51,838 bases of DNA from Mycobacterium phage prophiGD51-2, in the sequence record MW584195.1. One strand, written 5' to 3'. The notes under the pieces were generated by a model, which saw nothing but the letters and a program-made list of their open reading frames with translations, was not told the origin of the DNA and ran no database searches. The position numbers were made by a program, and so were the translations under genes. Shown one piece after another: positions 7,266 to 51,623 of the stretch (the first letter of the stretch is position 1; the number at the start of each line of letters is the position of its first letter).

Positions 7266-7676
7266 ATGGACGGCTACATCACCACCACCGAGGCTGCTGC
7301 CCGCGAGGGCGTCAGCGTGCAGGCGATCAGGAAGCGGATCGAGCGCGGGAGCATGGCGGGGGTCAAGGTCGGCGGCAGCTGGATGGTGCCGGCCACCGGT
7401 TGGGAGCCGGTCACCGTGACCGTCACCGGACCGTCCGGGTGCGGTAAGACCAGGCTGGCGGGCGCCATCGCCGAGCTGTGGAAGCAGCAGGGCGGCACCG
7501 TGCACCGGACCGAGCGCGGCTCCGGCTACGAGCGGCTGATCCTGAGCGCCGTGGACTACCAGCTGGCGGACCGGGTGCACGTCAGCCCGGTCGAGGTCAT
7601 CGAGGTCTCCGACCTCGCCGAGGGCAAGGGACGGCTGGCCTTCATGAGCTCGGCGTGGGCCGAGACCGCCAACTAG
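7266..7676 (+). CDS. HTH (excisionase/MerR-like N-terminus) fused to a small P-loop (Walker A 'GPSGCGKT') domain
   Basis: The RBS is GAAGGGGAACCAC-ATG. The HTH is 'ITTTEAAAREGVSVQAIRKRIERGSM'. The Walker A motif sits at residues ~55-62. Confidence 0.6.
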   Translation: MDGYITTTEAAAREGVSVQAIRKRIERGSMAGVKVGGSWMVPATGWEPVTVTVTGPSGCGKTRLAGAIAELWKQQGGTVHRTERGSGYERLILSAVDYQLADRVHVSPVEVIEVSDLAEGKGRLAFMSSAWAETAN

Positions 7677-7705
7677 CCCAAGCTCCAACACCGAAGGGAA
7701 TCACA

Positions 7706-8293
7706 GTGAACACGACCGTGAAGCACTACGAGACCGCCACCAAGCGCGACGCCGCCGAGGCCGAGATGCTGGCCTGTGTCGCCAGCTACTTTGAGCAGGG
7801 CCTGCACCTCGTGAAGGTCCGCCCGTTCAGCAAGGTGCCGGTGAGCCGCACCTGGACCACCGATCCCAACCTCACCGTGCGCGAGGCGATCGAGCACCTG
7901 CGCGCCGAAGGCAACATCGCGATGCACCTCGGCAAGAGCGGGCTGATGGTCTACGACGTGGACGCGACCACCGTGGCGAACGCTGAGTTCCTGGGTGCGC
8001 GACCGTTCGCCGACGCTGACGTGCGGACCCCCAACGGCGGGGCGCACTACTGGCAGGCCGATACCCCGGGCGTGGACCGGGACGGGTTGCTGCACGGGAA
8101 TCGGTTCGTGCTGTTGCCGCCGAGCCGCCTCCGGGTCGATGAGGAGCCCGACCTCCCGCGCGGGTTCAGGCGCATCGGCGCGGCGCCGGTGATCGGCACC
8201 GTCCGCAACCGCCACGGGGTCGACTACGACTACAACGTGATGAACACCGGCTTCGTGGGCAGCCCTCCGCGCATCGTGAACCTCGGCGACTGA
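7706..8293 (+). CDS. Small primase-polymerase (PrimPol / bifunctional DNA primase-polymerase N-terminal domain) protein
   Basis: The GTG start follows GAAGGGAATCACA. It carries the PrimPol-like motifs 'HLGKSGLMVYDVD' and 'TPNGGAHYW'. Confidence 0.6.
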   Translation: MNTTVKHYETATKRDAAEAEMLACVASYFEQGLHLVKVRPFSKVPVSRTWTTDPNLTVREAIEHLRAEGNIAMHLGKSGLMVYDVDATTVANAEFLGARPFADADVRTPNGGAHYWQADTPGVDRDGLLHGNRFVLLPPSRLRVDEEPDLPRGFRRIGAAPVIGTVRNRHGVDYDYNVMNTGFVGSPPRIVNLGD

Positions 8294-8378: not shown

Positions 8379-11372
8379 ATGGCAAACAACTCCGACGCGC
8401 ACCGCTACGCGCTCGACCGCCCCGCCGCCGAGGCGTGGGCAGATTTCTGGATCGCCCTCGGGGCGCACGTCCTGCCGCTGCGCAAGGACGGCTCGAAGAA
8501 GCCGTTGAACCCCGGCTGGCCCGACGCCCGGGCGATGACCCGCGACGACATTGTCACCTGGTTGATGCAGGGCGGCGGGATCGGCGTGAACCTGGGCAAG
8601 AGCGGCTGGGTCGGCGCTGACGCCGACAACGCCGCCGCCACCGACCTGTTCCGCAGTGCCGGTCTGGTGCGCACCGTGATCACCGCCAACTCGCAGGTGG
8701 AGGAGTCGCCGAAGTTCGGTGGCGGGCAATTTCTCATGTATGCGCCTGACGGCTACGACCCGGACACGCTGCACAGCCGGGCGTTCGAGCTCCCGTGCGG
8801 GGCAAAGGGCGACATGCTCGGCGGGCGCCGCTACATCGTCGTCCCGCCCACGCGTCTCGACGAGGCCGGCGGACGCTCGTACATGCCGGACCCGGAGGGC
8901 ATCTGGGGAGGCACCGGCGCCCCCATGCGGAAGGCCGGTCCCTGGATCGTCGACCCGAATGTGCAGGGCGACTTCGGCCGGCTGACGCCGCTGCTCGGCC
9001 TGCTCGGGCCGCGCAAGCCGCACGAGCGCGAGTATGACCCGGACGGCGAGTGGCGCACCGAGCGGCAGCAGCAGATCGACGAAATCCCCTGGGAGCGGGT
9101 GTTCGACTGCGCGGAGGGCCACAAGTTCACGGCCGACAGCACCGACAGCTGCGGCTGCGCTGTGTACGCCTACGCGGGACAGACCAGCAAGGACGGCCGC
9201 GGCCTCACCGCCCACGATGGCTGCAGCTGGGGCTGGTACGGCGCGACCTGGTCGGGTACGGCGCGGGCGCACTACGACCTGCCGCAGACCACTGATCGCC
9301 TGCGGATCGCGGCCCGGCTGCGCCACCTCGACACCGACGGCGAGGTCGCGCTCGGCCGGTCGTGGCGGGTCGGGTTCGGCGGGTTCCGCGACTTCGCCGA
9401 CACGATGGACGAGGCCGCGGAGAGGTACGAGGACTTCGCCGACGACCCGGAGAAGTGCACCGGTACCGCCCACGTGCTCGACCCGGACGTTCGGCCCACG
9501 GTCACGTCTTTCAATCCGCACGTCGCGGTGACCCGGCCTGACGCGTGGCGCGTGGTGCCCGCCGACCGGCAGCACTGGATCCGGCAGGCCGGGCAGTGCC
9601 GGGCAGTCGCGCGACAACTGCGCAGCGGGAAGCCGGCCGCGCCGCAGGGCAACGGGGAGACCTACCTGAACGGACCGGTCATCGGGGCCGAGGTGCCTCC
9701 GCAGCCGGTGTCGCAGCCGGCCGACCCCGCTGAGCCGATCGACGCCGAGACCGTCGAGCTGCCCGGTCAGGAACCGCCGACCGACACCGCCCCGGCCGTG
9801 GACGACGCGATCGACGCCGAGCTGCTCGACGGCCTGGGCACCGACAGGGCTGCCGAGTGCCGGCGGATCCTCCGCGAGCTGCGGGCAAAGATCATCCCGA
9901 TCGAACAGGAGATGGCGAAGTGCACGCCGGGGCTGCAGCGCCTGTACGACTTCGCGGAGAGCCGCGGGGTCTTCCCGCACGGGCTCGCGGGCGCCGCTAT
10001 CCCTCGCATCCTGGCGTCGGTCCCGCCGAACGTTGTGTTCCCGCCGCCGACGAGGCTGTGCGAGCACAAGGTCGAGGGGCAGGGCGTGAACGGGTACGTC
10101 GTGAACGTCGCCGCCACGTCGGCCGGTAAGGGCCGCACCGACTCCGCGGCGGAGGCGGCGTTCCCGCTCCAGAACGGGGTGGTCACCACCGGCACCGGCA
10201 CCTCGGAGGCGTGGTCGAAGAAGCTGCGCGGTGTGCAGGACGGCAAGCCGTACATCAAGACCACCAGCCTGCTGATCAACGTCGACGAGATGGATTCGCT
10301 CAACGGGTTCCTGAGCCAGCCCGGAAACAAGATGCCCGGATGGCTCGCCTCGACCTTCATGTCGGGGTACGGCGGGCAGGAGACCTCGGACGAGAAGAAC
10401 AGCGCACCGCTGCCGAAGCACGGCTCGAGGATCGGCATCCTGATCAACGCGCAGCCGGTCAAGATGGGCACCCTCGCCGCCCTGGACGGCATCGGGGTCG
10501 GGGCGCGCTTCGGCAAGGGAATGGCTGGCGTGGTCCGCAAGGTCGATCGCGGTCCGCTGTACGGGAAGAGCGTGGCCGCTGTCCTCGCGGACCAGAGTGG
10601 GCAGCCGTGGTACCACACCGGGCACGTCGGAGAGCCCCCGTACCCGCACATGCAGCCGCAGAGCGCCCGCGACGCCGCGACCGCCGCCGGAGCGGCTCCG
10701 CCCATCGTCAACCTCGGGCACAACGAGGACGGTGATCGGGTCGGCGTCACCGGGTTCGACGACGCGCCCCCGCTCTGGATCAAGCTGCCCGAGTGCGCCT
10801 GGGAGGACATCGCGGCGGGTGAGGACGTCGCCGCCGAGCGTGCGGCCGATCTGGAGCTGGCGTTCGACCAGGACGCGGAGGGCATCATCTCCGGCCACCG
10901 GATCCTGGTGGTGATGCACGTCTCGTTCGCGTTCGCGGTCCTCGACGGCAAGCACGAGGTCGAGGAGGCGCACTGGAAGGCCGCGAAGCTGTTCATGCAG
11001 GGGTCGGACCTCGTGGCCGCGATGTGCGGGGCTTGGCTGGAGCTGGCGAGCGAGGCCGAGGTGATCAAGGCCAACCAGCTCAAGGGTGTCGGTAACGCGG
11101 TCGCCCGTGCCGCGGACGCCACGGTCACCAACGGCGGTGTGGCCCGCTCCCGGCACGGCATCATCCGGGTGCTGTCGCAGGCGCCGGGCCTTACCATGAA
11201 GCCTGGCTACCTGAACTCCGGGTTCAAGGTCGGCGACAAAACGGTGGCGCTGTCCAAGGCGCAGAAGCGTCACGCGGCGCAGGCCGCGGAGCAGATGGAG
11301 CGCAGCGGTGAGCTGCGCAAAAACGCGGACGGCTCCTGGACCCTGTTGGAGAGCCTCGCCATCGCAGCGTGA
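8379..11372 (+). CDS. Large DNA primase/polymerase: N-terminal PrimPol domain plus C-terminal DUF3987-like domain with a degenerate P-loop
   Basis: The ATG start follows GGAAGGACACCACC. The N-terminal PrimPol motifs are 'HVLPLRKDGSKKPLNPGW' and 'GVNLGKSGWVGADAD'. The middle/C-terminal region contains 'NVAATSAGKGRT' and 'INVDEMDS'. Confidence 0.7.
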   Translation: MANNSDAHRYALDRPAAEAWADFWIALGAHVLPLRKDGSKKPLNPGWPDARAMTRDDIVTWLMQGGGIGVNLGKSGWVGADADNAAATDLFRSAGLVRTVITANSQVEESPKFGGGQFLMYAPDGYDPDTLHSRAFELPCGAKGDMLGGRRYIVVPPTRLDEAGGRSYMPDPEGIWGGTGAPMRKAGPWIVDPNVQGDFGRLTPLLGLLGPRKPHEREYDPDGEWRTERQQQIDEIPWERVFDCAEGHKFTADSTDSCGCAVYAYAGQTSKDGRGLTAHDGCSWGWYGATWSGTARAHYDLPQTTDRLRIAARLRHLDTDGEVALGRSWRVGFGGFRDFADTMDEAAERYEDFADDPEKCTGTAHVLDPDVRPTVTSFNPHVAVTRPDAWRVVPADRQHWIRQAGQCRAVARQLRSGKPAAPQGNGETYLNGPVIGAEVPPQPVSQPADPAEPIDAETVELPGQEPPTDTAPAVDDAIDAELLDGLGTDRAAECRRILRELRAKIIPIEQEMAKCTPGLQRLYDFAESRGVFPHGLAGAAIPRILASVPPNVVFPPPTRLCEHKVEGQGVNGYVVNVAATSAGKGRTDSAAEAAFPLQNGVVTTGTGTSEAWSKKLRGVQDGKPYIKTTSLLINVDEMDSLNGFLSQPGNKMPGWLASTFMSGYGGQETSDEKNSAPLPKHGSRIGILINAQPVKMGTLAALDGIGVGARFGKGMAGVVRKVDRGPLYGKSVAAVLADQSGQPWYHTGHVGEPPYPHMQPQSARDAATAAGAAPPIVNLGHNEDGDRVGVTGFDDAPPLWIKLPECAWEDIAAGEDVAAERAADLELAFDQDAEGIISGHRILVVMHVSFAFAVLDGKHEVEEAHWKAAKLFMQGSDLVAAMCGAWLELASEAEVIKANQLKGVGNAVARAADATVTNGGVARSRHGIIRVLSQAPGLTMKPGYLNSGFKVGDKTVALSKAQKRHAAQAAEQMERSGELRKNADGSWTLLESLAIAA

Positions 11373-11422: not shown

Positions 11423-11454
11423 TGTCTGGGGCCTCCTCAGCGGGTGGAACGGCC

Positions 11455-11758
11455 CGAACAGCCCAAAGAATCTTTTGGGCTGTTTGGCAAAAGTACCCCT
11501 GAACTGGGGTTTTGGGCTGTTTGGGTCGTTTGGGTCGTGGGGCTGGTAGGCACACCCGCAGCCGCTGGAGGTTGGGTTATTGTTAGTTCTTCAGGATTCA
11601 ATTTAATTAACTATAACAAACTAGAACCCTGACTTCCGACCCGCTGAGGGGTGCCGGTGTCGGAACAGCCCAAAACGACCCAACAGCCCAATCCGCAGGT
11701 GAGAGGTGGTTTCGCAGCAGCCCAACGAATTTCCGTTGGGCTGTTTTGGGCTGTTCGG
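11455..11758. repeat. Iteron-like cluster: 8-mer CAGCCCAA/TTGGGCTG (>=8 exact copies in both orientations, plus TTGGGTCG/CGACCCAA variants) flanking a sharply AT-rich ~60-bp island (11575..11635); candidate replication origin
   Basis: Exact 8-mers start at 11459, 11476, 11512, 11666, 11684, 11718, 11736 and 11747. Two form perfect hairpins (11459..11483 and 11718..11743). The AT-rich segment 'ttcaggattcaatttaattaactataacaaactag' stands out in an otherwise very GC-rich genome. Confidence 0.6.
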
Positions 11759-11864
11759 GTAGCCAGAGAGAGTTTAGGTTAGCGAATCTCGCTGGTTAGC
11801 TGGCCTAGGCGCCGAGCGGGTCACCGACCCGACGGAACAGCTTCCGCCGAACACGTGCGGCGTT

Positions 11865-13223
11865 CTAGACCATCACGCCGACTTTCGCGAGTGCAGCCTC
11901 GACGGTCTTCCGGGCTTCCGTAGCCTTCACCGCGGCGTCAGCGAACCCCTGCCACGCTGCACTGACCATCGCTGAATCGACCATGTGCCGCGGTGGGAGG
12001 ACAACGGACGCCAAGTCTTCTGGGTAGAGGGCGTCCACGACCGAACCGCATGCAAGGGCGGCGATCTGTTCCTGGACCGCATCGCTGGCCATCGCCGCCC
12101 AGAGCCATCCGGAATCGTCCTCCGACTTCGGCGTCGCCCGCCCAACGTGGCCGGAGGCGTACCACCCGCTCCGCTCCGCGGTGACCATGCACGGATAGCC
12201 GAGGCTCTCCTCCGCCCGTCCGTCCGCCTGGAAGCAGACGACGCCGCGGCTCAGTTCGTAGCCGGCACCGTCTGGGATGCTTCGCGAGGAGATGTTCTTC
12301 GCACCGATGACATCGGCCTGCAGCAGCTGCCTGCCGGATACGAGCGGGGTTCCGTGCCCCGGGGCGACGTAGTAGGTCTTGTACCTACCTCCCGGCTTGG
12401 TGATGGTGGCGACCTCACCGAGCTCGACACCCCCCGCGGCGAGAACCTTCTCCCTGATCGTGTGGACGTGCGTCGAGTGGTACGCCGCATCCAGCCGTGT
12501 CCCTAGCGCGGCGGCGCTCGTCGTCCACCCCTGTCGAAGCGGTGTGTCCCGTGCGGTGTCGAGCGAGTTGTTCAGTGCTTCAACGGCTCCGTGGAGCGTG
12601 ATCCGCGACTGCTCCCTGGTCTGAGTGGCGTCGCGCATGAGCGCCGCCACCTTGGTGACGATCGAGGCGATGAACGGCACCTGTATCGCCGATACCTGGT
12701 CGACGGTGATGTGGTCGATGACCGACCCGCTGAGGTCGCCCCGCAGTAGTTGCTGCCCTACTGCGGATTGGAGAAACGCGAGCGTGTAGTAACGATCAGA
12801 CTCGTCGGCGATGGTTATCCGGACCATGTCGTGTGACAGCGCGAAGCGGGCTAGGTAATCGTCGGCTATGGTCAACGGCCCGAGGTTGCGGCCGGAGCAC
12901 GTCTGCAGCAGGTCTCCGGAGCTGATGCGGTACGTGTCAAGGTTCTCAGTCCGCGTCACCGACAACCGGTCCGCTTCGGGTGGCAGATACTCGAACACGT
13001 CGTACGGCCGGAGGTAGGAAATGAACGCCTCGCCCGGTGCGGCGTACGTTCGCTTGAATCTGCTGGGAGCCCGGACAGCGCCGAATTCTCCGATGCTCCG
13101 CAGCGGTGTCCTCTTCGCCTTTGAGAGCACCGCGCGCAGGCGAACGGCAGGCGCGGCGTGGAACCGGGCGTCTATCCGGTTGGCTTCTGACAAGGCGATG
13201 GCGCGTGTTGGTGCAATTTTCAT
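11865..13223 (-). CDS. Restriction-modification specificity (HsdS/BcgIB-like, two-TRD) subunit
   Basis: It has HsdS-like conserved spacer motifs, including '...VVLPPRHMV...'. The ATG at 13223 overlaps the stop of the upstream RM gene (ATGA) and follows GAAGG. GC3 is lower than in the phage core genes. Confidence 0.65.
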   Translation of the reverse strand: MKIAPTRAIALSEANRIDARFHAAPAVRLRAVLSKAKRTPLRSIGEFGAVRAPSRFKRTYAAPGEAFISYLRPYDVFEYLPPEADRLSVTRTENLDTYRISSGDLLQTCSGRNLGPLTIADDYLARFALSHDMVRITIADESDRYYTLAFLQSAVGQQLLRGDLSGSVIDHITVDQVSAIQVPFIASIVTKVAALMRDATQTREQSRITLHGAVEALNNSLDTARDTPLRQGWTTSAAALGTRLDAAYHSTHVHTIREKVLAAGGVELGEVATITKPGGRYKTYYVAPGHGTPLVSGRQLLQADVIGAKNISSRSIPDGAGYELSRGVVCFQADGRAEESLGYPCMVTAERSGWYASGHVGRATPKSEDDSGWLWAAMASDAVQEQIAALACGSVVDALYPEDLASVVLPPRHMVDSAMVSAAWQGFADAAVKATEARKTVEAALAKVGVMV

Positions 13224-15208
13224 TTTTGCGCCTTCAGCCACTCGCGGTACGCCTCTGCAACCTCCGCGAGTTCATCATCGATCTGACGTTCGGTAACGGT
13301 GACCTCTCGGAGTACCTCCTTGCCCGTCGTCTCGTCTATGTCCGTCACCATCTCGGTCCTGCTGATAAGCGCATCGTCACCATCCTCGGTGCGCCTGTAG
13401 ATCAGGTTGCCGCGCTTGTCGTGGCCGACTGTCTCCGCGACCGCCATGAACAACGGGTAGTCCAATCCGGTCTTCTGAGCCTTGGCGACCTCCGCGTCGT
13501 CCAGGCGCCGCATCAGCACCATCGAGGTCTGCGTGTCGTTCTTGGGCTGGAATAGATCTCGGTGCATGTCTACGACGGCGAGGATCTGGGCGTGAGTCAG
13601 TAGCCAGTGGCGCACGTAGGCGAGCCCGGGGTTGTTCAGGATCCCGTTCGGAATGACCATCGCCATACGCCCGGTGCCGGGCTTGAGCAGTTGGATGGCG
13701 CGCTCGATGAACAGGATCTCGGGCGGCTGCGACTTCTGGAGAACCGGGTTGCCGTTGCCATCGAGCCGTATTGACCAGTTGCCGTCTTCGTCCTGGTCCC
13801 ACATGGCGGCCAGGTCGTACTGGGACAGGATTTCTTCGTCGTCGATCGGGATGTTCGCTCCGAAAGGAGGATTGGACACGATCACGTCGACGCTGCCCAG
13901 GGGGAGGCTGTCTCTCAACGCTCGGTCCCACTTGTGCGGATTCTCCAGTGTGTTCGCTTGCCGGAGCTGGCCCGATCCGTCGTTGTTCATGACCATGTTC
14001 ATCTTGGCCGCGCGTACCAAGGCGGGGTTCAAGTCGATGCCGAAGACGTACTGGGACAGGTACTCGGTACGCCGGCGGTGAAGCTCGTCGCGCTCGGCGT
14101 CGGTTCCGTTCGTGGGATCGACCCACTGTGCGCGCTCCTCTGACTCGATGTGTTCGAGCGCGCGGTTCATGCCGGTAATCAAAAATCCGCCCGTGCCGCA
14201 CGACGGATCGAGAATGCGCTGGTCTGGCTGGGGATCGAGCATCGTGACCGCCATGCGGCAGGCGTTGCGAGGGGTGAAGAACTCGCCGCGGTCACCGCGA
14301 AGGTTCGAGCCGACGATCTCCTCGTAGGCGACGCCCTTGACGTCCACGGGGGTGTACAGAAGCGAGTAGCTCTGGAGCTGGCTCACGACGTACGCGATCA
14401 CTGCGGGCTTGAGGTCGATCGCGCGGTCGCGCTCCTCGAAGATGGTCGGGTACTTCCTGACCACCTTCTCCTCGAACAGCCCCTGAATGCGCTTCTTAGC
14501 TGCCGACGCTGCGGTGCTGCTGGCCCGCTCGGCGGGGGTGACGTAGAAGTTCAGACGAGAAGATCGCTCATCCTCGATCTTCGTGAAGATGAGCTTGAGG
14601 AGTTCCCAGAACGCCTCGGTCTTCTGCTTTCCCTCGTGCGCTGCGATGAAGTTGTGGCACCGACGGAAGGCGAACAGGAGGTTGTCGGCGGTCGCGACTT
14701 TCAGATCTTTGCGCTTGGGGCGTTGGACATCGTCCTCGGATTGGCCGTATCCGGGGATGTCGATGATCTCCTCGAACTCCCAGCCGCCCTTGCCATTCGA
14801 TCGCTTCGCGTAGCAGAACTTGTCGTCGCCGTTCGTCCAGATGCCGTACTTGGCGTTGAGGCACGCCGCCATGTACGAGTGGAGCTGACCGACGCCCTCA
14901 GTTCGGTGGGTCGGTTTCACGTCGGCGCGCTTCGTCTCGATGAGAACGTGGCCGTTGGGCTGCGTGTGCGGTTGGCCTGCGCCGAACACGACGATGTCCA
15001 CGCGCTTACGGCTAGATCCGACCTTGATCGGAAACTCGGGCTGGCAGTCTTTCGCTGCGAACTTGTACTGGCGCACCAGCGCCTTCTCGATGTTCTGCCG
15101 GACGTACTCCTCGGGGGTGTCGTTGACCAGCTTGCCGGTGAGGAAGTCCGCCACCTTCCCCTCAGGCACCGATCCAGCGGCGCTTACGGTCGGAGTTAGG
15201 TCGGTCAC
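13220..15208 (-). CDS. Type IIB/IIG-like bifunctional restriction endonuclease-methyltransferase (BcgIA-like): N-terminal PD-(D/E)xK (HsdR_N-type) nuclease plus gamma-class N6-adenine methyltransferase
   Basis: The nuclease motifs are 'VDIVVF...LIETKRAD'. MTase motif I is 'ILDPSCGTGGFL' and motif IV is 'VIVSNPPFG'. The GTG at 15208 is preceded by AGAGGA. Confidence 0.7.
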   Translation of the reverse strand: MTDLTPTVSAAGSVPEGKVADFLTGKLVNDTPEEYVRQNIEKALVRQYKFAAKDCQPEFPIKVGSSRKRVDIVVFGAGQPHTQPNGHVLIETKRADVKPTHRTEGVGQLHSYMAACLNAKYGIWTNGDDKFCYAKRSNGKGGWEFEEIIDIPGYGQSEDDVQRPKRKDLKVATADNLLFAFRRCHNFIAAHEGKQKTEAFWELLKLIFTKIEDERSSRLNFYVTPAERASSTAASAAKKRIQGLFEEKVVRKYPTIFEERDRAIDLKPAVIAYVVSQLQSYSLLYTPVDVKGVAYEEIVGSNLRGDRGEFFTPRNACRMAVTMLDPQPDQRILDPSCGTGGFLITGMNRALEHIESEERAQWVDPTNGTDAERDELHRRRTEYLSQYVFGIDLNPALVRAAKMNMVMNNDGSGQLRQANTLENPHKWDRALRDSLPLGSVDVIVSNPPFGANIPIDDEEILSQYDLAAMWDQDEDGNWSIRLDGNGNPVLQKSQPPEILFIERAIQLLKPGTGRMAMVIPNGILNNPGLAYVRHWLLTHAQILAVVDMHRDLFQPKNDTQTSMVLMRRLDDAEVAKAQKTGLDYPLFMAVAETVGHDKRGNLIYRRTEDGDDALISRTEMVTDIDETTGKEVLREVTVTERQIDDELAEVAEAYREWLKAQK

Positions 15209-15324
15209 GTCATACGTCCTCTGTCATCGTCCTCGCCGGGCGGCATGATGGTTAAGCCGCAGCCTATCGACGCCGTACATCGGTCCCCGGCAGACCCGCC
15301 GCCGGTGTCCGATTCCCGGTGCTG

Positions 15325-15531
15325 CTATCGGGGCCTGTCTTCAAGCCACCTCCGGATCGACGCCAGCTCTTGTTCCCACGTCACCGCCCCCGTTCCTCGA
15401 AGCAGCCGGTGCCACTCTCGCTCGGCGGCGAGGTACTGCTCCGCCCACTCCGGCAGCGCCACCGCATCGACCAGGTCTTCCGCGAACTCATCCACATGGA
15501 TTGGACGCACCACCTCACCGCGCGGTTCCAT
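15325..15531 (-). CDS. Small hypothetical protein upstream of the RM genes (possible controller/accessory protein)
   Basis: A 68-aa ORF starts with ATG at 15531. Its codon usage resembles the RM genes, and there is no strong RBS. Confidence 0.3.
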   Translation of the reverse strand: MEPRGEVVRPIHVDEFAEDLVDAVALPEWAEQYLAAEREWHRLLRGTGAVTWEQELASIRRWLEDRPR

Positions 15532-15703
15532 CTCCGCGCAACTTTGCGGGATCGCGCGTAGTTGCGCTGGCCACAGCTACTACCAGAATCGCACCAAGCA
15601 GCGGGTTCTGTTCGATCAGTTACCGAACTGAGCCCCCTGTGTGCTAAGCTGCGCTCGCTAGAGCGCCCGACGTGGACCGGAAAAGGTCCGTCACCCTCTC
15701 ATC

Positions 15704-15740
15704 ACCGCGCCCCGCATCACGCCGGGCGCGGTTCTTGTTT
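15704..15740 (+). terminator. Rho-independent terminator
   Basis: ACCGCGCCCCG-CATCACGC-CGGGCGCGGT followed by TCTTGTTT. It resembles the attL-proximal terminator. Confidence 0.7.
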
Positions 15741-15755
15741 CCGGGGGAGGCCGCT

Positions 15756-15929
15756 GTGCACCTCGACCTGACCGACCTCGGCGACTGCGGTGGCGTGATC
15801 GCCTCGCTTCGGCCAGCCCACGCGCAACCCGTGGCAGTCGACGCCCGACCGGCCCCCGCCTTCACCGGGCTGCGGTGGTTCGGGATCGCCCCCGACACCG
15901 ACGAGCCCGAGGAGTACTTCTGTGACTGA
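15756..15929 (+). CDS. Small hypothetical protein (58 aa)
   Basis: The GTG at 15756 follows GGGGGAGG with 6-nt spacing. The listed ORF 15672..15929 would start upstream of the terminator, which is implausible. Confidence 0.5.
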   Translation: MHLDLTDLGDCGGVIASLRPAHAQPVAVDARPAPAFTGLRWFGIAPDTDEPEEYFCD

Positions 15930-16083
15930 CCAGACCCCCGACGCCACCGACGACGCAGAGCTGACCGAGCCGCTGCCCGTGCCCGAGCAGAAGCCCGCCA
16001 CGAAGCCGGCCAAGCCCGCGGCCAAGACGAAGGCCACGTTCAAGCGCACGACGTACGTCCCGTACGACCACGACGCACAGTGA
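15922..16083 (+). CDS. Small Lys/Ala/Pro-rich basic protein (53 aa), not in the ORF track (<60 aa)
   Basis: The GTG at 15922 overlaps the upstream gene end. The translation is 'VTDQTPDATDDAELTEPLPVPEQKPATKPAKPAAKTKATFKRTTYVPYDHDAQ'. Its stop overlaps the next gene's GTG (GTGA). Confidence 0.4.
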   Translation: MTDQTPDATDDAELTEPLPVPEQKPATKPAKPAAKTKATFKRTTYVPYDHDAQ

Positions 16084-16388
16084 CGTACCGCTACCCGAAC
16101 AGCACGCGTACCACCACCCCCGAGCATCGCGCCCGCAGGCTCCGCGTCTTCAAGCGAGACGGTTACCGATGCCAGATCAGAGGCGCGCGGTGCACCGGTC
16201 ACGCCGACGAGCTCGACCACGTCATCGCGCTCGCTGAACACGGACCCGACACCGACGAGAACAGCCGCGCCGCGTGCCGCGAGTGCCACCGCGAGAAGAG
16301 CCTCGCCGAAGCCGCCCGCGGCCGACGCCGGCAAGCCCGCAGCGCGTGGCACCCCGTCGAGCCGCACCCCGGACTCCGCACCGCCTGA
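16080..16388 (+). CDS. HNH endonuclease (terminase-associated)
   Basis: HNH motif 'GYRCQIRGARCTGHADELDHVIALAEHG...CRECHREK'. It sits immediately upstream of terS/terL. Confidence 0.8.
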   Translation: MTYRYPNSTRTTTPEHRARRLRVFKRDGYRCQIRGARCTGHADELDHVIALAEHGPDTDENSRAACRECHREKSLAEAARGRRRQARSAWHPVEPHPGLRTA

Positions 16389-16518
16389 CCCCACCCGGGT
16401 ACCCCCTCGGACTCCGTCGAGTTCCTCGGGTGGCATAGGCGCTCGGCAAACGTACGGGTCTGGAGATTTTCAACCGACAACGCGCCGCTCGGCGCACCTC
16501 GCCGAGGAGGTGGTTCCG

Positions 16519-16992
16519 ATGGCTGGACGCGGACCCGCCCCGAAGCCGGAAGGCTCCCGCGCGCGGCGCAACGGCTCGGCGGTGTCGATGAAGGTGTACA
16601 CCTCCGAACCGACCACGCAGCCGGAGCTGCCGGAGTTCGACGTGCAGGTCGAGGTCGACGGCGCGATCGTCTCGCAGGCCTTCGTCTGGCCGCCGGCCAC
16701 CCGCCGGTGGTGGGAGACGTGGGGCGCTGAGCCGATGGCTGCGGACTTCACCGCCACCGACTGGGACTTCTTGCTCGACACCGCGCTGCTTCACGCGCGG
16801 GTGTGGGCGGAGGGCGACCTCAAGCTCCTCCCCGAACTGCGGCTGCGCGTCGCGAAGCTCGGCGCGACCGGCGAGGACCGCGCACGTCTGCGGATCACAT
16901 ACGCCGCCGCCGACCAGGCCGACGAGAAGCGGAAGACTCCGCCGCCCGGCGGCGGAAGCCGTTCCCGTCGGGGTCCGCTCAAGGCGGTGTAG
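16519..16992 (+). CDS. Terminase small subunit (P27-family-like)
   Basis: The N-terminus 'MAGRGPAPKP' is typical of the P27 family. The RBS is GAGGAGGTGG, then 5 nt, then ATG. Confidence 0.75.
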   Translation: MAGRGPAPKPEGSRARRNGSAVSMKVYTSEPTTQPELPEFDVQVEVDGAIVSQAFVWPPATRRWWETWGAEPMAADFTATDWDFLLDTALLHARVWAEGDLKLLPELRLRVAKLGATGEDRARLRITYAAADQADEKRKTPPPGGGSRSRRGPLKAV

Positions 16993-16999
16993 CTCCACC

Positions 17000-18661
17000 G
17001 TGCCGTGGAAGCCCTCCGAGGCCGGCGAAGTGCCGACCCTCGGCTGGTACGCGATCGACTGGATGACCGAGCACCTCGCGGCGCCCGGGAAGCTCGACTA
17101 CGAGCCGTTCCGGCCGACGCCGGAGCAGGAGGACTTCATCCTCCGCTGGTACGCGCTCGACCCGCGCACCGGCCGGTTCCTCCACGACCGCGGCCTGCTC
17201 GGCCGGCCTCGCGGTTGGGGCAAGAGCCCGCTCCTCGCCGCCATCGCGTGCTTCGAGGGACTCGGCGACTGCCTGCCCGACGGGTGGGACGCCGACGGTC
17301 AGCCCGTCGGCCGGCCATGGGCGACGGTGCGCACCCCGGTGGTGCACATCGCCGCGGTGACCGAGGACCAGACCCGAAACACGTGGCAGCCACTCCTCGA
17401 GATGCTGCGCGAGGGGCCGGTCCTCGACGCCTACCCCGGCCTGGACCCGATGGACACGTTCGTTTCGCTGCCGTGGTCCGGCGAAGCGCGCATCGAGCAG
17501 ATCACCGCCTCGGCGCGCAGCACCAAGGGCGCCCCGATCGTGTTCGCCACCCTGGACCAGACCGAGGAGTGGGTGCCCGGCAACGGTGGCCCGCGTCTCG
17601 CGCAGGCGATCCGCACCAACGCCGCGAAGAACGGCGGGCGCACGATCGAGAGCCCGAACGCGTTCATCCCCGGCGAAAACAGCGTCGCCGAGGAGTCCGC
17701 CGCGTTCGCCGCGAAGATCGCGGCCGGACAGACTCTCGCGACCGGCCTGCTACTCGATCACCGCGAAGCGCCGGCCGACACCGACATGAGCGACCGCGAG
17801 TCGCTGACCCACGGCCTCCGCGTCGCGTACGGCGACAGCAGCGCGCACCCCGACGGGTGCTTGCTGCACACCCCGCCGTGTCCGCCCGGGTGGGTGGAGC
17901 TGGAACCGCTTATCCAGCGCGCCTGGGATCCGTCGAGCGACCCGCAGGTGATCCGCTCCGACCTGCTCAACCAAATCACGCACGCCTCGGACTCGTGGCT
18001 GTCGAAACCGGCCTGGACCGCAGCGGCGGACGCCGCCAAGGTGATCGCCACCGGCGACACCATCGTCCTCGGCTTCGACGGCTCCCGCGGCCGCAACAAG
18101 GGCAAGGCCGACGCCACCGCGCTGATCGGCTGCCGCGTAGAGGACGGGCACCTGTTCGAGATTCGCGTCTGGGAGCAGGGACCGACCGACGACAAGGACT
18201 GGACCCCGAACGCGATCGAGGTGGACCGCGAGGTTCGCCGGTGCTTCGAGGACTACAACGTGGTCGGCTTCTACGCAGACCCGTCCGGCTGGACAGAGTG
18301 GATCGCGAAGTGGGAGGCCACCTTCGGCCGACGGCTCCGCGTTCGCGGCTCGCAGGATCACCCGATCATGGCCTGGCCGCGCGGCAAGGACTCGCGCATC
18401 GTCGAGTACGTCGAACGGTTCCGGCTCGCGACTGTGAACGGCGAACTGTCGCACGACGGTTCAAGCACCCTCACTCGCCACGTGCTGAACGCGCGCCGCC
18501 GCTCGACCCGGACCGGCTACCTGATCTTCAAGAAGTTCCCGGACTCGCCGGACAAGATCGACGCCGCCTACGCGGCGGTCATGGCATGGAAGGCGCGGAC
18601 CGACGCTCTCGCGAAGGGCGTTGGCGCGCAGCGCAAAACCAAGCGGAAGGCGGTGTTCTGA
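17000..18661 (+). CDS. Terminase large subunit
   Basis: Terminase ATPase Walker A 'GRPRGWGKSPLLAAIA', followed by a C-terminal nuclease region. The GTG start at 17000 is uncertain. Confidence 0.8.
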   Translation: MPWKPSEAGEVPTLGWYAIDWMTEHLAAPGKLDYEPFRPTPEQEDFILRWYALDPRTGRFLHDRGLLGRPRGWGKSPLLAAIACFEGLGDCLPDGWDADGQPVGRPWATVRTPVVHIAAVTEDQTRNTWQPLLEMLREGPVLDAYPGLDPMDTFVSLPWSGEARIEQITASARSTKGAPIVFATLDQTEEWVPGNGGPRLAQAIRTNAAKNGGRTIESPNAFIPGENSVAEESAAFAAKIAAGQTLATGLLLDHREAPADTDMSDRESLTHGLRVAYGDSSAHPDGCLLHTPPCPPGWVELEPLIQRAWDPSSDPQVIRSDLLNQITHASDSWLSKPAWTAAADAAKVIATGDTIVLGFDGSRGRNKGKADATALIGCRVEDGHLFEIRVWEQGPTDDKDWTPNAIEVDREVRRCFEDYNVVGFYADPSGWTEWIAKWEATFGRRLRVRGSQDHPIMAWPRGKDSRIVEYVERFRLATVNGELSHDGSSTLTRHVLNARRRSTRTGYLIFKKFPDSPDKIDAAYAAVMAWKARTDALAKGVGAQRKTKRKAVF

Positions 18662-20169: not shown

Positions 20170-21934
20170 GTTCCAGGGGCTGCTCTCGGAGCTGTCGAAC
20201 CGCCTCGGCGGTGAGGTGGCGAACCTGGTCCCGCGCCTCGACCGTCTCGACGACGGCGAACGCCGCCGGTTCATCACCTCGGCGTACCCGCAGATCGCGA
20301 CGCCCTACCTCGCCGCTGCCGGAGACCTGACCGCCGCGTTCTACGACGCCCAGCCGAGCCTCACCCGTGGGTTCACCGCGCAGCCCGCTGCGCTGGCACC
20401 CGTCGAGCAGCTCGCGGCGTCGGGGCGGTGGGGGATCGCGCAGCGTGACCCGATCATCGCCCTGCAGGGCTCCGCCACGCGCAGCGTGTTCGACAGTAGC
20501 CGAAGCACGGTGCTGCACAACGTGACCCGTGAGACCGGCGCACAGTGGGCGCGATACGCCTCGGCCAACGCGTGCGGCTTCTGCCGGATGCTCGCCACCC
20601 GCTCGATCGGCAGCGGCTCGCTGTACAGCAGTGAGCGCGCCGCCACTCGGGTCGTCGGGCGCGGCAAGGACATGTCCCCGATGGAGCGCCGTATCCGTGC
20701 CGCCGGAGGGGAACGCATCGGCGGGCGGTTCATCGCCGCCGGCCGCAGCCCGCGCGGGAATCAGAAGATCGGCGACCGGTACCACGATCACTGCCGCTGC
20801 ACCGCGGTGGCGATCCGCCCCGGCGACACCTACGAGCCGCCCGACTACGTGTACCAGTGGGAGCGCGACTACGTCGAGGCGACCCGCGCACTCGGCCGCA
20901 GCGGTGAGCCGCTCACAGCAACCAACGTGGTCCGCCACATGGAGACCACCGCGGCGGAACGCACCGCGAAGGTGCAGGCCGCCCGTACAGCACAGGCCGC
21001 CGACGAGGCGTTCGCGCAGCAGGTCCGCAACGAGCACTGGCAGGCCACGCTCGACTGGCTTGACGCCGAGGACGCACAGATCGCGCGGAACCGGTACTTC
21101 CAGCAGATCGACGACGCGGCGGAAGCCGAACGGCGGCAGCGGATCCTGTCCTGGCTCGACGCCGAGGACGAGCACCGCGCCGCGGTCGCGTACTGGCACC
21201 GCGTCGACGACGAGCTGCGCGCTGTTCCCGCAGTCGAGCACGGCGCGGCACAGACGGCGGTGTCCGCCGACGTCTCCGCCACCGTCGCCGAGTCGGAACT
21301 CGACCGCGCGGTCGCGAAGCTGGAAGCCGCCCTGGCGTCCGGTGCCGACGACGCCACGATCCTCCGCCTGTCGGAGGCAGCCGAAGCGATCGAGCGCAAG
21401 GTCTCCGCAGAGGACGCGGCCACCGCTCTCCGGACTCGCCGACGCGAGCAGGCCGCAGCCCGCCGCGAAGCTGCGGACCGGGACAAGTGGGACCGGATCA
21501 TCGCCCTCATCGAGGACGAGGGCTACGACCCCGCCGAGGCCGAGTCCAAGGTCACCGGCGTCGACATCGTCAAGATCTGGAAGCGCGACTTCATGGCGCA
21601 GGCGCGCCGCGACGGTCACTACGGGGACAGCTTCGAGGAGCTGCTCGGTTCCGTGCACAAACAGCGCGTCGCCGAGCTGTACCTCGAAGCTGAGAACGCA
21701 ACGCGCGGAGCGCTGTTCAAGCGGTCGAGCATCAAGGCGGACGGCACGTTCCCGTTCGATCCGATCCTGTTCTGGTCCATGCCGGCGGAACGGGTGCGCA
21801 AGCACGCGAGCCCTGAGCTGGCCGAATGGTTCGACCAGAACGGCCGGCTGACCCGTACCATGATGCGCAACGCCATCCTGTCCGGCCGAGGCTGGAAGGA
21901 ACACGGCGGAGACAGAGAGGACTTCCTGCAGTGA
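20150..21934 (+). CDS. MuF-like head morphogenesis/minor capsid protein with a long Ala/Glu/Arg-rich C-terminal region containing internal 'WLDAED...' repeats
   Basis: It follows the portal gene and has the Cys-containing segment 'NACGFCRMLATRS...DHCRCTAV'. The tandem protein repeats are 'WLDAEDAQIARNRYFQQIDD' and 'WLDAEDEHRAAVAYWHRVDD'. Confidence 0.55.
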   Translation: MVSGLPEFQGLLSELSNRLGGEVANLVPRLDRLDDGERRRFITSAYPQIATPYLAAAGDLTAAFYDAQPSLTRGFTAQPAALAPVEQLAASGRWGIAQRDPIIALQGSATRSVFDSSRSTVLHNVTRETGAQWARYASANACGFCRMLATRSIGSGSLYSSERAATRVVGRGKDMSPMERRIRAAGGERIGGRFIAAGRSPRGNQKIGDRYHDHCRCTAVAIRPGDTYEPPDYVYQWERDYVEATRALGRSGEPLTATNVVRHMETTAAERTAKVQAARTAQAADEAFAQQVRNEHWQATLDWLDAEDAQIARNRYFQQIDDAAEAERRQRILSWLDAEDEHRAAVAYWHRVDDELRAVPAVEHGAAQTAVSADVSATVAESELDRAVAKLEAALASGADDATILRLSEAAEAIERKVSAEDAATALRTRRREQAAARREAADRDKWDRIIALIEDEGYDPAEAESKVTGVDIVKIWKRDFMAQARRDGHYGDSFEELLGSVHKQRVAELYLEAENATRGALFKRSSIKADGTFPFDPILFWSMPAERVRKHASPELAEWFDQNGRLTRTMMRNAILSGRGWKEHGGDREDFLQ

Positions 21935-22122
21935 GCACGTACACGGTCGCCGACCTGGTGCGCGCGCGTGCGGAAGGCCTCACTGCCGAGGTGGGCGCCG
22001 AGAACCCGTACGCCGGAGCGTCTCTCGTGCTCGCACAGGTCTGGCGCCGCGCGTACATGACCCGCCTCGCGGTCCGGTTGGAACGTTCACCCGGACGGCA
22101 GAGCATCACCGCCGAGCAGTAG
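21931..22122 (+). CDS. Small hypothetical protein (63 aa)
   Basis: The GTG start overlaps the MuF-like stop (GTGA). It lies in frame within listed ORF 21826..22122. Confidence 0.45.
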   Translation: MSTYTVADLVRARAEGLTAEVGAENPYAGASLVLAQVWRRAYMTRLAVRLERSPGRQSITAEQ

Positions 22123-49890: not shown

Positions 49891-50421
49891 ATGACTAGAC
49901 CAGTTACAGCCCACGGACCCGGATCCGTCGCCGTTGCCTACAACGTCCGCCGCCGTCGCAATGAGCTGGACATGAGCGGCACCGAACTGCGAGACCGACT
50001 GTCCGCCTTCGGATTAAACGTTCACCGCAGCTGGGTGTCAGAGGTGGAGAACCGCAAGCGAACCGTCGACGTCGACGAGCTTCTCGTGCTCGCGGCGGCG
50101 CTTACCGTCAGCCCGTCCACATTGCTGATGCCCCGGGCGGTCACGCCGGAGGACGTCGTGCCGACGGTGAGCGGCCCGCGCGACGCGCGGGACGTCTGGG
50201 ATTGGATAGCGGCCGAGCGCTCGCTCGGGAGCAGTTGGCTTGACGCCGACGACGAGGCGGAACGGCGCCGGTACCGCGCGGTGGCGCGCCCACCGTGGGT
50301 GGCATTCGCCGAGTCAGCGGTTGAGCACGGCGCCGCCGTGCAGGTCTCCCGCGACGTCCCCACGGATGAAGAGGTACCCGCCGAGGTACTGGAAGAAGAT
50401 CGCGCGGAGGCCAAACGATGA
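49891..50421 (+). CDS. Prophage repressor (XRE-family HTH)
   Basis: The HTH is 'MSGTELRDRLSAFGLNVHRSWVSEVENRKR'. The ATG at 49891 has no SD, which suggests a leaderless transcript. The gene ends in ATGA overlap with the integrase start. Confidence 0.65.
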   Translation: MTRPVTAHGPGSVAVAYNVRRRRNELDMSGTELRDRLSAFGLNVHRSWVSEVENRKRTVDVDELLVLAAALTVSPSTLLMPRAVTPEDVVPTVSGPRDARDVWDWIAAERSLGSSWLDADDEAERRRYRAVARPPWVAFAESAVEHGAAVQVSRDVPTDEEVPAEVLEEDRAEAKR

Positions 50422-51623
50422 CCGAGCAGAAGCGCACGCGGCGCAGCAACGGGGAAGCCAGCTACCGGAAGCGCTCCGACGGCCGGTGGGAGGGCCGGAT
50501 CCGGATCGTTGATGATCGCGGCGAGGTGCACCGGCCGAGCGCCTACGGCAAGACCAAGGCTCTGGCTAAGGCCGCGTTGGAGGAGAAGATCAGCCGCATC
50601 CGTGAGGGCGTCGCCGTCGTCGACTCCCGCAGCACAGTGGCCGAGGTCGCGCGCCGCTGGTGTGAGGTGACGCTGCAGGCGAGCCCGCGGAAGCGGGCCA
50701 CGAAGGAGCTGTACGACGCGCGCAGCCGTCTGCACATCGAGACCGGGCACCTCGCTGCGATCCCGCTGAACCGGCTCACGGCCGTGCACGTCGAGGAATG
50801 GATTCTGGCGGAGCGCGCGGGCGGTACCGCGCCGAGCAGCCAGCGCACGGACTACGCGGTGCTGCGCGCCGTCCTCGACGGCGCGGTCCGGGACAAGTTG
50901 GTCGCGCGGAACGTCTGCGAGACGGTCAAGCGCCCGCATGTGCCGAAGCGCGAGGCCGTTCACCTCGACCCGGCGCAGGTTGCTGCATTGCTCGCCGCGA
51001 CCGCCGGAAGCAGCCACGCGCTACCCATCCGCCTCTACGCACGGACCGGTGCACGCCGCGGCGAGGTGTTGGCGCTGCGGTGGAAGGATGTCGACCTCGT
51101 GAACGGCACCGTCACCGTCGCCGGGACCATGTCCGGGAGCGGGAAGAAGTTGCGCCGGGAGCCCGAGGCGAAGAGCAGCTCGGCGCACCGGCCGCTGCCG
51201 ATCGGGGCCGACCTTGTGGAGGAGCTGCGGACGTGGCGGAAGCGTCAGCAGCAGCACCGCGCCGCCGCGATGCAGCTGTGGGAGGACGTCGAGGGCTTGG
51301 TCTTCACGACTGAGTTCGGCCGGCCGCTCGATCCTCGGAACGTCCTCCGCACGGTGCAGACCGCCGCGCAGAGGTTGGGGCTCCCGAAGGAAACCGGGGT
51401 GCACACGCTCCGGCACAGCGCGGCCACCGCGCTGCTCGAAGGCGGGGCGCACCTGAAGCTCGTCTCGTCGATCCTCGGCCACTCGGACACGAGCATTACC
51501 GCCAACATCTACGGGCACGCGACGGACTCGGCGGCGCGTGCCGCCCTCGACGCGCTCGCTGTCACGCAGGCCGCGAAGCCGGCGGAGCCGGAGGACGGTC
51601 GGCACCTGCGCGCGGTTCCGTGA
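50418..51623 (+). CDS. int: Tyrosine integrase
   Basis: The catalytic residues are in conserved context: R in 'ARRGEVLAL', H-x-x-R in 'HTLRHSAAT', H in 'ILGHSD', and Y in 'ANIYGH'. It lies adjacent to attR. Confidence 0.9.
   Translation: MTEQKRTRRSNGEASYRKRSDGRWEGRIRIVDDRGEVHRPSAYGKTKALAKAALEEKISRIREGVAVVDSRSTVAEVARRWCEVTLQASPRKRATKELYDARSRLHIETGHLAAIPLNRLTAVHVEEWILAERAGGTAPSSQRTDYAVLRAVLDGAVRDKLVARNVCETVKRPHVPKREAVHLDPAQVAALLAATAGSSHALPIRLYARTGARRGEVLALRWKDVDLVNGTVTVAGTMSGSGKKLRREPEAKSSSAHRPLPIGADLVEELRTWRKRQQQHRAAAMQLWEDVEGLVFTTEFGRPLDPRNVLRTVQTAAQRLGLPKETGVHTLRHSAATALLEGGAHLKLVSSILGHSDTSITANIYGHATDSAARAALDALAVTQAAKPAEPEDGRHLRAVP

Follow-up and report, generated by a model that had tools for sequence, protein, structure and literature searches.

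The sequence record of Mycobacterium phage prophiGD51-2 (MW584195.1), a stretch of 51,838 nt hereafter referred to as the window, carries a reverse-strand cassette of two overlapping genes, designated RM (restriction and modification) and S (specificity). On balance, we regard it as probable that this pair constitutes an autonomous restriction–modification (R-M) enzyme with the architecture of type IIB, which the prophage would express as a defence moron. The cassette is most likely a phage-borne addition to a known enzyme type and not a new enzyme type.

The RM gene (13220..15208, − strand, 662 aa), identified from the open reading frame (ORF) list and its domains, starts with a GTG at 15208 and ends with a TGA at 13222–13220, while the S gene (11865..13223, − strand, 452 aa) starts with an ATG at 13223–13221 that overlaps the RM stop codon in a 4-nt ATGA (13220..13223, −), the sequence across the junction being CAAAAATGAAAATT. 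Taken from its first GTG, the S frame spans 11865..13241 (−), with the 452-aa version starting at the ATG at 13223. Inspection of the sequence revealed a ribosome-binding site, AGAGGA, that precedes the RM GTG by 8 nt (15217..15222, −), and a GAAGG Shine–Dalgarno-like motif 7 nt upstream of the S ATG. Both ORFs proposed in the original prediction, made from the DNA sequence without database searches and describing a BcgI-like type IIB R-M moron, are therefore present with their ATGA overlap, confirming the predicted translational coupling of RM and S.

Pfam analysis of RM returned HSDR_N_2 (PF13588; residues 32–152, E value 6.7e-22) and N6_Mtase (residues 289–568, E value 3.3e-28), in agreement with the proposal that an N-terminal PD-(D/E)xK nuclease and a gamma-class N6-adenine methyltransferase (MTase) are combined in one protein; the four motifs quoted in support of that proposal (VDIVVF, IETKRAD, DPSCGTGGFL and NPPFG) are all in the RM translation. 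In the AlphaFold2 (AF2) model of RM (mean predicted local distance difference test (pLDDT) 82.8), the HsdR-N-type nuclease domain (aa 30–150; 14759..15121, −; PF13588 and AF2) has an alpha-beta-beta-beta-alpha-beta core (helix 32–46, strands 55–63, 66–75 and 86–92, helix 106–115 and strand 121–125; pLDDT 80–94). This is followed by a multi-helical connector (aa 174–302; 14303..14689, −), which aligns with that of the type IIB enzyme BsaXI from residue 218, a Rossmann-type gamma-class N6-adenine MTase domain (aa 303–600; 13409..14302, −; Pfam N6_Mtase) and a C-terminal tail (aa 601–662; 13223..13408, −) of beta-hairpins and a terminal helix (647–660), which presumably docks on the S coiled coil. 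Within the MTase domain, motif I (DPSCGTGGF, aa 334–342, 14183–14209, −; DPSCGTGGFL, 334–343) precedes motif IV (NPPF, aa 446–449, 13862–13873, −; NPPFG, 446–450).

Sequence alignments placed the nuclease catalytic residues at D71 (14996–14998), E91 (14936–14938) and K93 (14930–14932; all − strand), with VDIVVF holding D71 and IETKRAD holding E91 and K93. In alignments of 39 and 60 RM homologues, drawn from Actinomycetota, Pseudomonadota, Chloroflexota, Bacillota and other phyla, this triad is invariant, as are MTase motifs I and IV, and D71, E91 and K93 are at least 98 % conserved in 74 RM sequences, the homologues spanning 50–98 % identity. Conservation of the nuclease domain almost reaches that of the MTase domain (mean identities of 0.58 and 0.64, respectively, against 38 homologues). 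No helicase or ATPase domain was detected in RM or S using Pfam, NCBIfam and PADLOC.

The AF2 model of S (pLDDT 90.5, predicted template modelling score 0.90) displays a fold in which two target recognition domains (TRDs) alternate with two conserved regions (CRs): TRD1 (aa 40–186; 12666–13106), CR1 (aa 189–220; 12564–12659), TRD2 (aa 265–414; 11982–12431) and CR2 (aa 417–447; 11883–11975), all on the − strand. S returned no Pfam domain; it does match the PADLOC type I specificity models, and Foldseek matched its model to PacII S, BsaXI S and the HsdS proteins of EcoKI, Mycoplasma genitalium and Methanocaldococcus jannaschii, lending support to the earlier assignment as a two-TRD HsdS-like protein. 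The two halves of S are 26 % identical to each other (E value 1e-6), suggesting an internal duplication with different TRDs, and the sequence and model together indicate that the target site would be asymmetric and bipartite. Across 70 homologous S proteins, the CR1 and CR2 coiled coils are less conserved than the TRDs, a pattern opposite to that of classical type I S families; against one homologue (L006), identity is 0.73 for TRD1, 0.31 for CR1, 0.47 for TRD2 and 0.26 for CR2. Pairs whose RM proteins are more than 75 % identical displayed no TRD swapping, and their TRD identity never fell below 0.34.

Among proteins of solved structure, the RM subunit of BsaXI (PDB 8W0P; PMC11997821) was the best match of RM by sequence (phmmer E value 2e-23; E value 3e-47 using a 39-sequence profile), compared with an E value of ~1e-22 for the best type I HsdM, and Foldseek with the RM model returned E values of 1e-25 for BsaXI and 8e-17 for HsdM. 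BsaXI shares the order of nuclease, helical connector and MTase as well as a separate two-TRD S, and forms an (RM)2S complex (PMC11997821). In the profile alignment, D71, E91 and K93 of RM align with BsaXI D90, E105 and K107, so that a check for degenerate nuclease residues, suggested with the original prediction, found the triad intact and invariant. Alanine substitution of these BsaXI residues, or of E73, abolishes cleavage (PMC11997821). BsaXI differs in that its identity with RM is ~19–20 %, its RM is 916 aa rather than 662 aa, and its residues 631–739 and those beyond 760 have no counterpart in RM, the tail of which is ~60 aa long. BsaXI has its connector at residues 193–348, a knob at 626–742 and a C-terminal paddle that is required for cleavage (PMC11997821). 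The lack of both knob and paddle places RM outside the BsaXI subfamily. It also agrees, as do the AF2 models of RM and S, with the layout described for the BcgI-type RM+S group (BveI, Hso63250II, HpyUM), in which R and a helical connector are followed by a type I-like MTase ending in a single helical tail, and S is separate (PMC11997821).

The BcgI-like type IIB reading therefore stood with regard to the RM fusion and two-TRD S architecture, the nearest solved relative being a type IIB enzyme; it had not considered MAD2 and MAD5, the closest curated families, and restriction itself is something we infer. The archetype BcgI (A2B) has an A subunit of ~637 aa, close to the 662 aa of RM, and a B subunit of ~341 aa, which is shorter than the 452-aa S. 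The cassette is also reminiscent of the M2S1 core of type I R-M systems such as EcoKI and EcoR124I, with a gamma-class HsdM-like MTase fold and an HsdS-like TRD-CR-TRD-CR fold, and the M and S genes of type I systems are likewise translationally coupled (PMC3510504). It differs in having its nuclease fused to M and no HsdR or ATP-dependent translocase: no HsdR or SF2 translocase was found in the flanks in the window or in the conserved neighbourhood of the 81 loci described below. A type I system with HsdR nearby was therefore ruled out and, because it has no translocase, the cassette is not type I.

A further relative is the HsdRM and HsdS pair of A. variabilis plasmid D (bioRxiv 10.1101/2025.10.21.683720), which likewise combines HSDR_N_2 with N6_Mtase, has S adjacent and is located on a mobile replicon. 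This HsdRM is 28 % identical to RM over residues 31–575 (E value 8e-64), the nuclease domain included, with the D...E-x-K residues aligned; it differs in its BsaXI-like length of 917 aa and in the Pfam Methylase_S domain of its S. In two Nostoc strains, plasmid-borne expression of hsdRMS drastically reduced conjugation (bioRxiv 10.1101/2025.10.21.683720). The preprint puts the PD...(D/E)XK motif at residues 444–452 (bioRxiv 10.1101/2025.10.21.683720). In the Trichormus variabilis plasmid D sequence (NC_021575.1, 60–2813; L088), these residues fall inside the MTase domain, while Pfam HSDR_N_2 is at residues 91–200 and the sequences AADVIVY and IVECK align with RM D71 and E91/K93, respectively, so the published catalytic assignment probably needs revision. 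Gene gp28 of Mycobacterium phage Panchino, another temperate actinobacteriophage, is also of the RM type. Its product is a single polypeptide that matches only residues 268–603 of RM (the MTase region) at 30 % identity and, by this alignment, belongs to a different family. Dedrick et al. 2017 reportedly described a prophage-encoded restriction role for Panchino gp28 in lysogen defence.

The best NCBIfam models for the two proteins were MAD2 for RM (NF047738; E value 2.7e-185, 617 bits; RM 15–656 on profile positions 2–653 of 654) and MAD5 for S (NF047740; E value 5.6e-60, 203 bits; S 1–444 on profile positions 1–459 of 461), for which the equivalog cut-offs are 720 and 400 bits, respectively. 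In the eight-gene Methylation-Associated Defence System (MADS), the MAD2 methyltransferase acts with the S subunit MAD5 to methylate the bipartite sequence TCAG-N4-TCC (Maestri et al., bioRxiv 10.1101/2023.03.30.534895). The same work reports that cells survive deletion of the MADS S gene only if mad2 or mad3 is deleted too, that mad6, mad7 and mad8 are mandatory in the authors' model and that phages escape MADS by gaining methylation (bioRxiv 10.1101/2023.03.30.534895). The lethality of the S deletion suggests that MAD2 participates in a toxic, possibly nucleolytic activity. Three homologues that stand alone, in Streptosporangium, Xanthomonas and a Sphingomonadaceae metagenome-assembled genome, score 613–677 bits on MAD2, also below the cut-off. 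RM and S are adjacent and overlapping in the window, whereas the mad gene numbering puts mad3 and mad4 between mad2 and mad5, and none of mad1, 3, 4, 6, 7 and 8 was found beside the cassette, the flanks consisting of Prim-Pol, HNH and terminase genes. MADS membership was ruled out on account of the sub-cut-off scores, the absence of mad3/4/6/7/8 and the lack of a third gene conserved across the 81 loci; RM and S are thus placed, by sequence, as a sister family to MAD2 and MAD5. Two plasmid candidate MADS loci (Klebsiella and Streptomyces) proved on inspection not to be MADS. The PADLOC mad8 model was matched by two of 140 neighbour proteins (E value 1.4e-21).

To define the conserved unit, we clustered the neighbouring ORFs of 83 loci, comprising 80 genomic loci from one-genome-per-species contigs and three earlier loci. 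RM (81 loci) and S (78 loci) were recurrent, and the next cluster reached only 12. S lies directly downstream of RM on the same strand in RM-S loci; an exact 4-nt overlap was scored in 20 of 77, while a further 42 returned a spacing of −22 or −19 on account of an upstream alternative start, as here, which we interpret as the same 4-nt overlap. As only RM and S are conserved together across the 81 loci, the pair is, on this comparative evidence, an autonomous and horizontally mobile two-gene module and not MADS. Conserved cassette ends, repeats or a transposase were rejected, as nucleotide similarity to the other fetched loci does not reach into the sequence flanking RM and S.

The neighbourhoods are otherwise heterogeneous and frequently contain defence or mobility genes. 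CBASS genes adjoin the cassette in Microbacterium forte, an integrase, a resolvase and a transposase lie near it in L085, and a TraA relaxase does so in Sphingomonadaceae, while a sample of 35 loci contained AbiU/AIPR (adjoining the cassette in 4/35), GajB, Cas1, McrBC, GmrSD and integrases. The GC content of the cassette is lower than that of its flanks in 65/67 loci (median difference −7 points). Close relatives of RM and S are present in Mycobacterium, Streptomyces and Microbacterium genomes. Conservation of RM is unusually high: its identity (L004–L083) is 76–80 % for most of the listed actinobacterial homologues, reaching 88 % for the nearest, and 50–55 % for those from Proteobacteria and Chloroflexota. 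RM was matched at E values of 1e-10 or lower by 7,500 of 8,000 scored candidates, and at least 581 stretches in a species-representative genome set encode an RM relative.

In the phage genome, all genes supported by GC content at third codon positions (GC3) between 4981 and 44592 are on the + strand except RM and S. Their GC content (0.62 and 0.65, respectively) is lower than the ~0.70 of neighbouring genes, a deficit of about 6–7 GC points relative to the flanks, and their GC3 is lower as well (0.84 and 0.80 vs 0.85–0.93 in five flanking + strand genes). The opposite orientation and lower GC3 that had been proposed for the pair were both borne out by this gene map, and its moron-like placement, as a reverse-strand, low-GC unit between a Prim-Pol replication gene and the HNH, small terminase (TerS) and large terminase (TerL) packaging genes, was likewise upheld.

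Over 21,377 nt, the window and a stretch (L084) of the 105.8-kb Logan contig SRR21939555_43 are 100 % identical, and a sister phage on a 51.7-kb contig (L002) carries the same cassette in the same place. Between the window and the sister phage, nucleotide identity is 92–97 % across RM, 86–98 % across S (86 % in one S window) and 96 % across phage structural genes. The substitutions are distributed over codon positions as 12/2/93 in RM and 17/10/60 in S, with 15 non-synonymous and 89 synonymous codon changes in RM, and this third-position bias reveals purifying selection on both genes in this phage.

No close homologue of the cassette was found among 50,697 GenBank phage records (best 29–30 % identity), neither the nuclease domain nor S is covered by a PHROG, and BFVD returned no full-length counterpart. 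IMG/VR contained 27 contigs with relatives at 31–52 % identity, of which 23 have S downstream. RM and S are absent from all 26 IMG/VR (pro)phages with related TerL (56–70 % identical, with at least 6 kb of upstream sequence), and the related-TerL phages lacking the cassette also lack the Prim-Pol gene. This absence, together with the lack of a close GenBank phage homologue, marks the cassette, as far as the sampled genomes indicate, as an accessory acquisition of this phage lineage. No precise empty site was found among the related phages, only absence of the cassette, because their replication modules are mosaic; Rhodococcus phage ReT1v-1 was rejected as an empty-site comparator, being too mosaic outside the packaging genes. 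The cassette thus has the attributes of a moron: an autonomous unit in opposite orientation, of foreign composition and absent from relatives.

By analogy with the biochemistry and structure of BsaXI and with HsdRM and HsdS of A. variabilis plasmid D, we propose that an (RM)2S complex would bind an asymmetric bipartite site via its two TRDs. On host and prophage DNA, it would transfer a methyl group to one adenine per strand, whereas unmethylated incoming DNA would be cut on two sides by the PD-(D/E)xK domains of RM itself, cleavage by RM and S being expected from these relatives. The cassette would be expressed from the prophage via its own promoter, presumably located in 15209–15671, so that the lysogen and the prophage would be protected from superinfecting phages and plasmids, and progeny virions would exit pre-methylated. 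With nuclease, methylase and specificity all in one complex, the cassette could enter a naive genome without killing it, which fits its wide horizontal spread. We infer the stoichiometry, the two-sided cleavage, the expression in the lysogen and the defence phenotype from these comparisons.

Several observations weigh against this assignment. MAD2 and MAD5 are by far the closest curated families to RM and S, yet both matches are below the cut-off. In Pseudomonas aeruginosa MADS, mad3, mad4, mad6, mad7 and mad8 are each needed for defence (bioRxiv 10.1101/2023.03.30.534895), meaning that MAD2 and MAD5 by themselves are insufficient for restriction in that species; according to a 2026 review, the mechanism by which MADS restricts is unknown. 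No characterised member of the exact RM+S family was found, and database labels for the family read only 'N-6 DNA methylase' and 'hypothetical protein'. The nuclease-domain alignment of RM and BsaXI is weak when taken alone (7.8 bits), and an E. coli-type scan found no promoter, with terminator hits at chance level.

These points lend some credence to a methylation-only M+S module, a possible but clearly less probable explanation, in which the N-terminal PD-(D/E)xK domain would be DNA-binding or regulatory, or a partner-dependent effector as in MADS, and the phage would protect itself by pre-methylation against a host MADS or R-M system of matching specificity. The proximity to MAD2/MAD5, the dependence of MADS on mad3, 4, 6, 7 and 8 beyond its methyltransferase, the gain of methylation as an escape route from MADS and source annotations that read methylase only are all in keeping with such a module, and orphan methyltransferases are common on phages. 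An invariant catalytic triad over 50–98 % identity and many phyla, in a nuclease nearly as conserved as the MTase, is nevertheless difficult to account for unless the domain is catalytic. In 78/81 loci the pair is on its own, so partners are not co-inherited, and its setting is frequently a defence island or mobile element; its transcription also runs opposite to that of the lytic genes, as in a moron expressed by the lysogen, and it lies outside the early lytic module. Finally, the lethality of the MADS S deletion, relieved by loss of mad2 or mad3, hints at a toxic MAD2 activity.

Much less likely is a type I-like M2S methyltransferase dependent for restriction on an HsdR-type translocase-nuclease or MADS effectors encoded elsewhere in the host chromosome, even though the MTase and S share their folds with type I M and S subunits, many homologues are labelled 'type I restriction enzyme M protein' by JGI and two of the neighbour proteins match mad8. 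No helicase or HsdR is conserved near any of the 81 loci or present in the phage flanks, and a cassette that moves on phages, integrative and conjugative elements and plasmids cannot count on a matching partner in each new host; furthermore, RM already has an HsdR-N-type nuclease domain and matches BsaXI far better than any HsdM. We consider it highly improbable that the cassette is an inactive, decaying passenger without current phage function. Its composition is foreign to the phage and the E. coli-type scan detected no promoter, as such a passenger might show, but both ORFs are full-length relative to homologues, all catalytic motifs are intact, the ATGA overlap and ribosome-binding site are kept and the substitutions between the sister phages have the third-position bias described above.

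If the cassette is active as a prophage-borne R-M enzyme, it would shape superinfection immunity and gene flow in the actinobacterial host, and, as type IIB enzymes serve 2b-RAD genotyping, new specificities from this very large, poorly annotated family would be practically useful. Because the family is nearest to MAD2/MAD5, the two-gene version would also provide a simple test system for the MAD2 nuclease domain. More speculatively, and with little confidence, the stand-alone pair may be the minimal self-sufficient form of the module on which MADS was built, or the phage copy may be a counter-defence that pre-methylates phage DNA against host MADS-type systems. Were the two genes alone to restrict via the MAD2-type N-terminal PD-(D/E)xK domain, that domain would be the prime candidate for the executor of MADS; were the phage copy a counter-defence, it would hard-wire the epigenetic escape that has been observed in experiments.

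The divergent intergenic region 15209..15671 separates the RM start from the first rightward phage gene (15672). It is 62–81 % identical to the sister phage, with indels, compared with 92–97 % across RM and 86–98 % across S, and has no similarity to the other fetched loci. It contains an open frame of 68 aa (15325..15531, −), which the original prediction had put forward as a possible controller gene. This suggestion was not sustained: the ORF returned no Pfam, NCBIfam, PADLOC or PHROG match and no helix-turn-helix, is confined to the identical contig and the sister phage (69 % identical) and absent from more than 80 other loci, and its substitutions against the sister phage are not of the coding type (15/18/21 by codon position; 22 non-synonymous and 14 synonymous). 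It also falls where the region is most divergent and richest in indels, and it is best regarded as non-coding regulatory DNA between divergent transcription units.

Downstream of S, a 22-nt inverted repeat (11663–11684/11735–11756, 91 % complementary) has an RNA fold with z = −3.6 and may act as a bidirectional terminator where the Prim-Pol and S transcripts converge. The repeat overlaps an octamer cluster at 11440–11770, which holds seven of the nine exact GGGCTGTT/AACAGCCC octamers of the window (chance mean 1.2 per whole window). The octamers are arranged in direct and inverted orientation around a ~60-bp AT-rich stretch (11570–11635) in a 70 % GC genome, directly 3′ of the Prim-Pol gene, and the cluster is 81–95 % conserved in the sister phage. 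Region 11440–11770 looks like iterons with a DNA-unwinding element, making it a candidate phage replication origin by sequence, although it could be a bidirectional terminator.

The left flank of the cassette consists of two Prim-Pol genes (7478–8293 and 8379–11372, +), both of which carry a Prim-Pol N-terminal domain (E values 4e-9 and 3e-10, respectively). The C-terminal half of the second (997 aa) resembles Gordonia phage primase/polymerases (23–27 % identity); the gene had no match in IMG/VR and only 23–27 % matches in GenBank phages. The right flank encodes an HNH endonuclease (16080–16388, +), a small terminase (16510–16992, +) and a large terminase (17000–18661, +) and, together with a tyrosine integrase (50418–51623), these phage flanks indicate a temperate phage or prophage. 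Scanning the window for tRNAs and Rfam families returned nothing. Gene calls on the identical Logan contig include a 239-aa ORF at 15717–16436 (−; L084, 6806–7525). This ORF overlaps the + strand HNH gene as well as 53-aa and 85-aa genes called on the sister contig; it probably represents an antisense artefact of high GC content. An unexpected finding in the structural module was a ribosome-hibernation-factor homologue: a 63-aa gene (21931–22122, +) between a VG15/MuF-like gene and the scaffold/capsid genes, the product of which matches Pfam RMF (ribosome modulation factor; 35 bits, cut-off 27.9) and also PHROG 1757, which has no assigned function.

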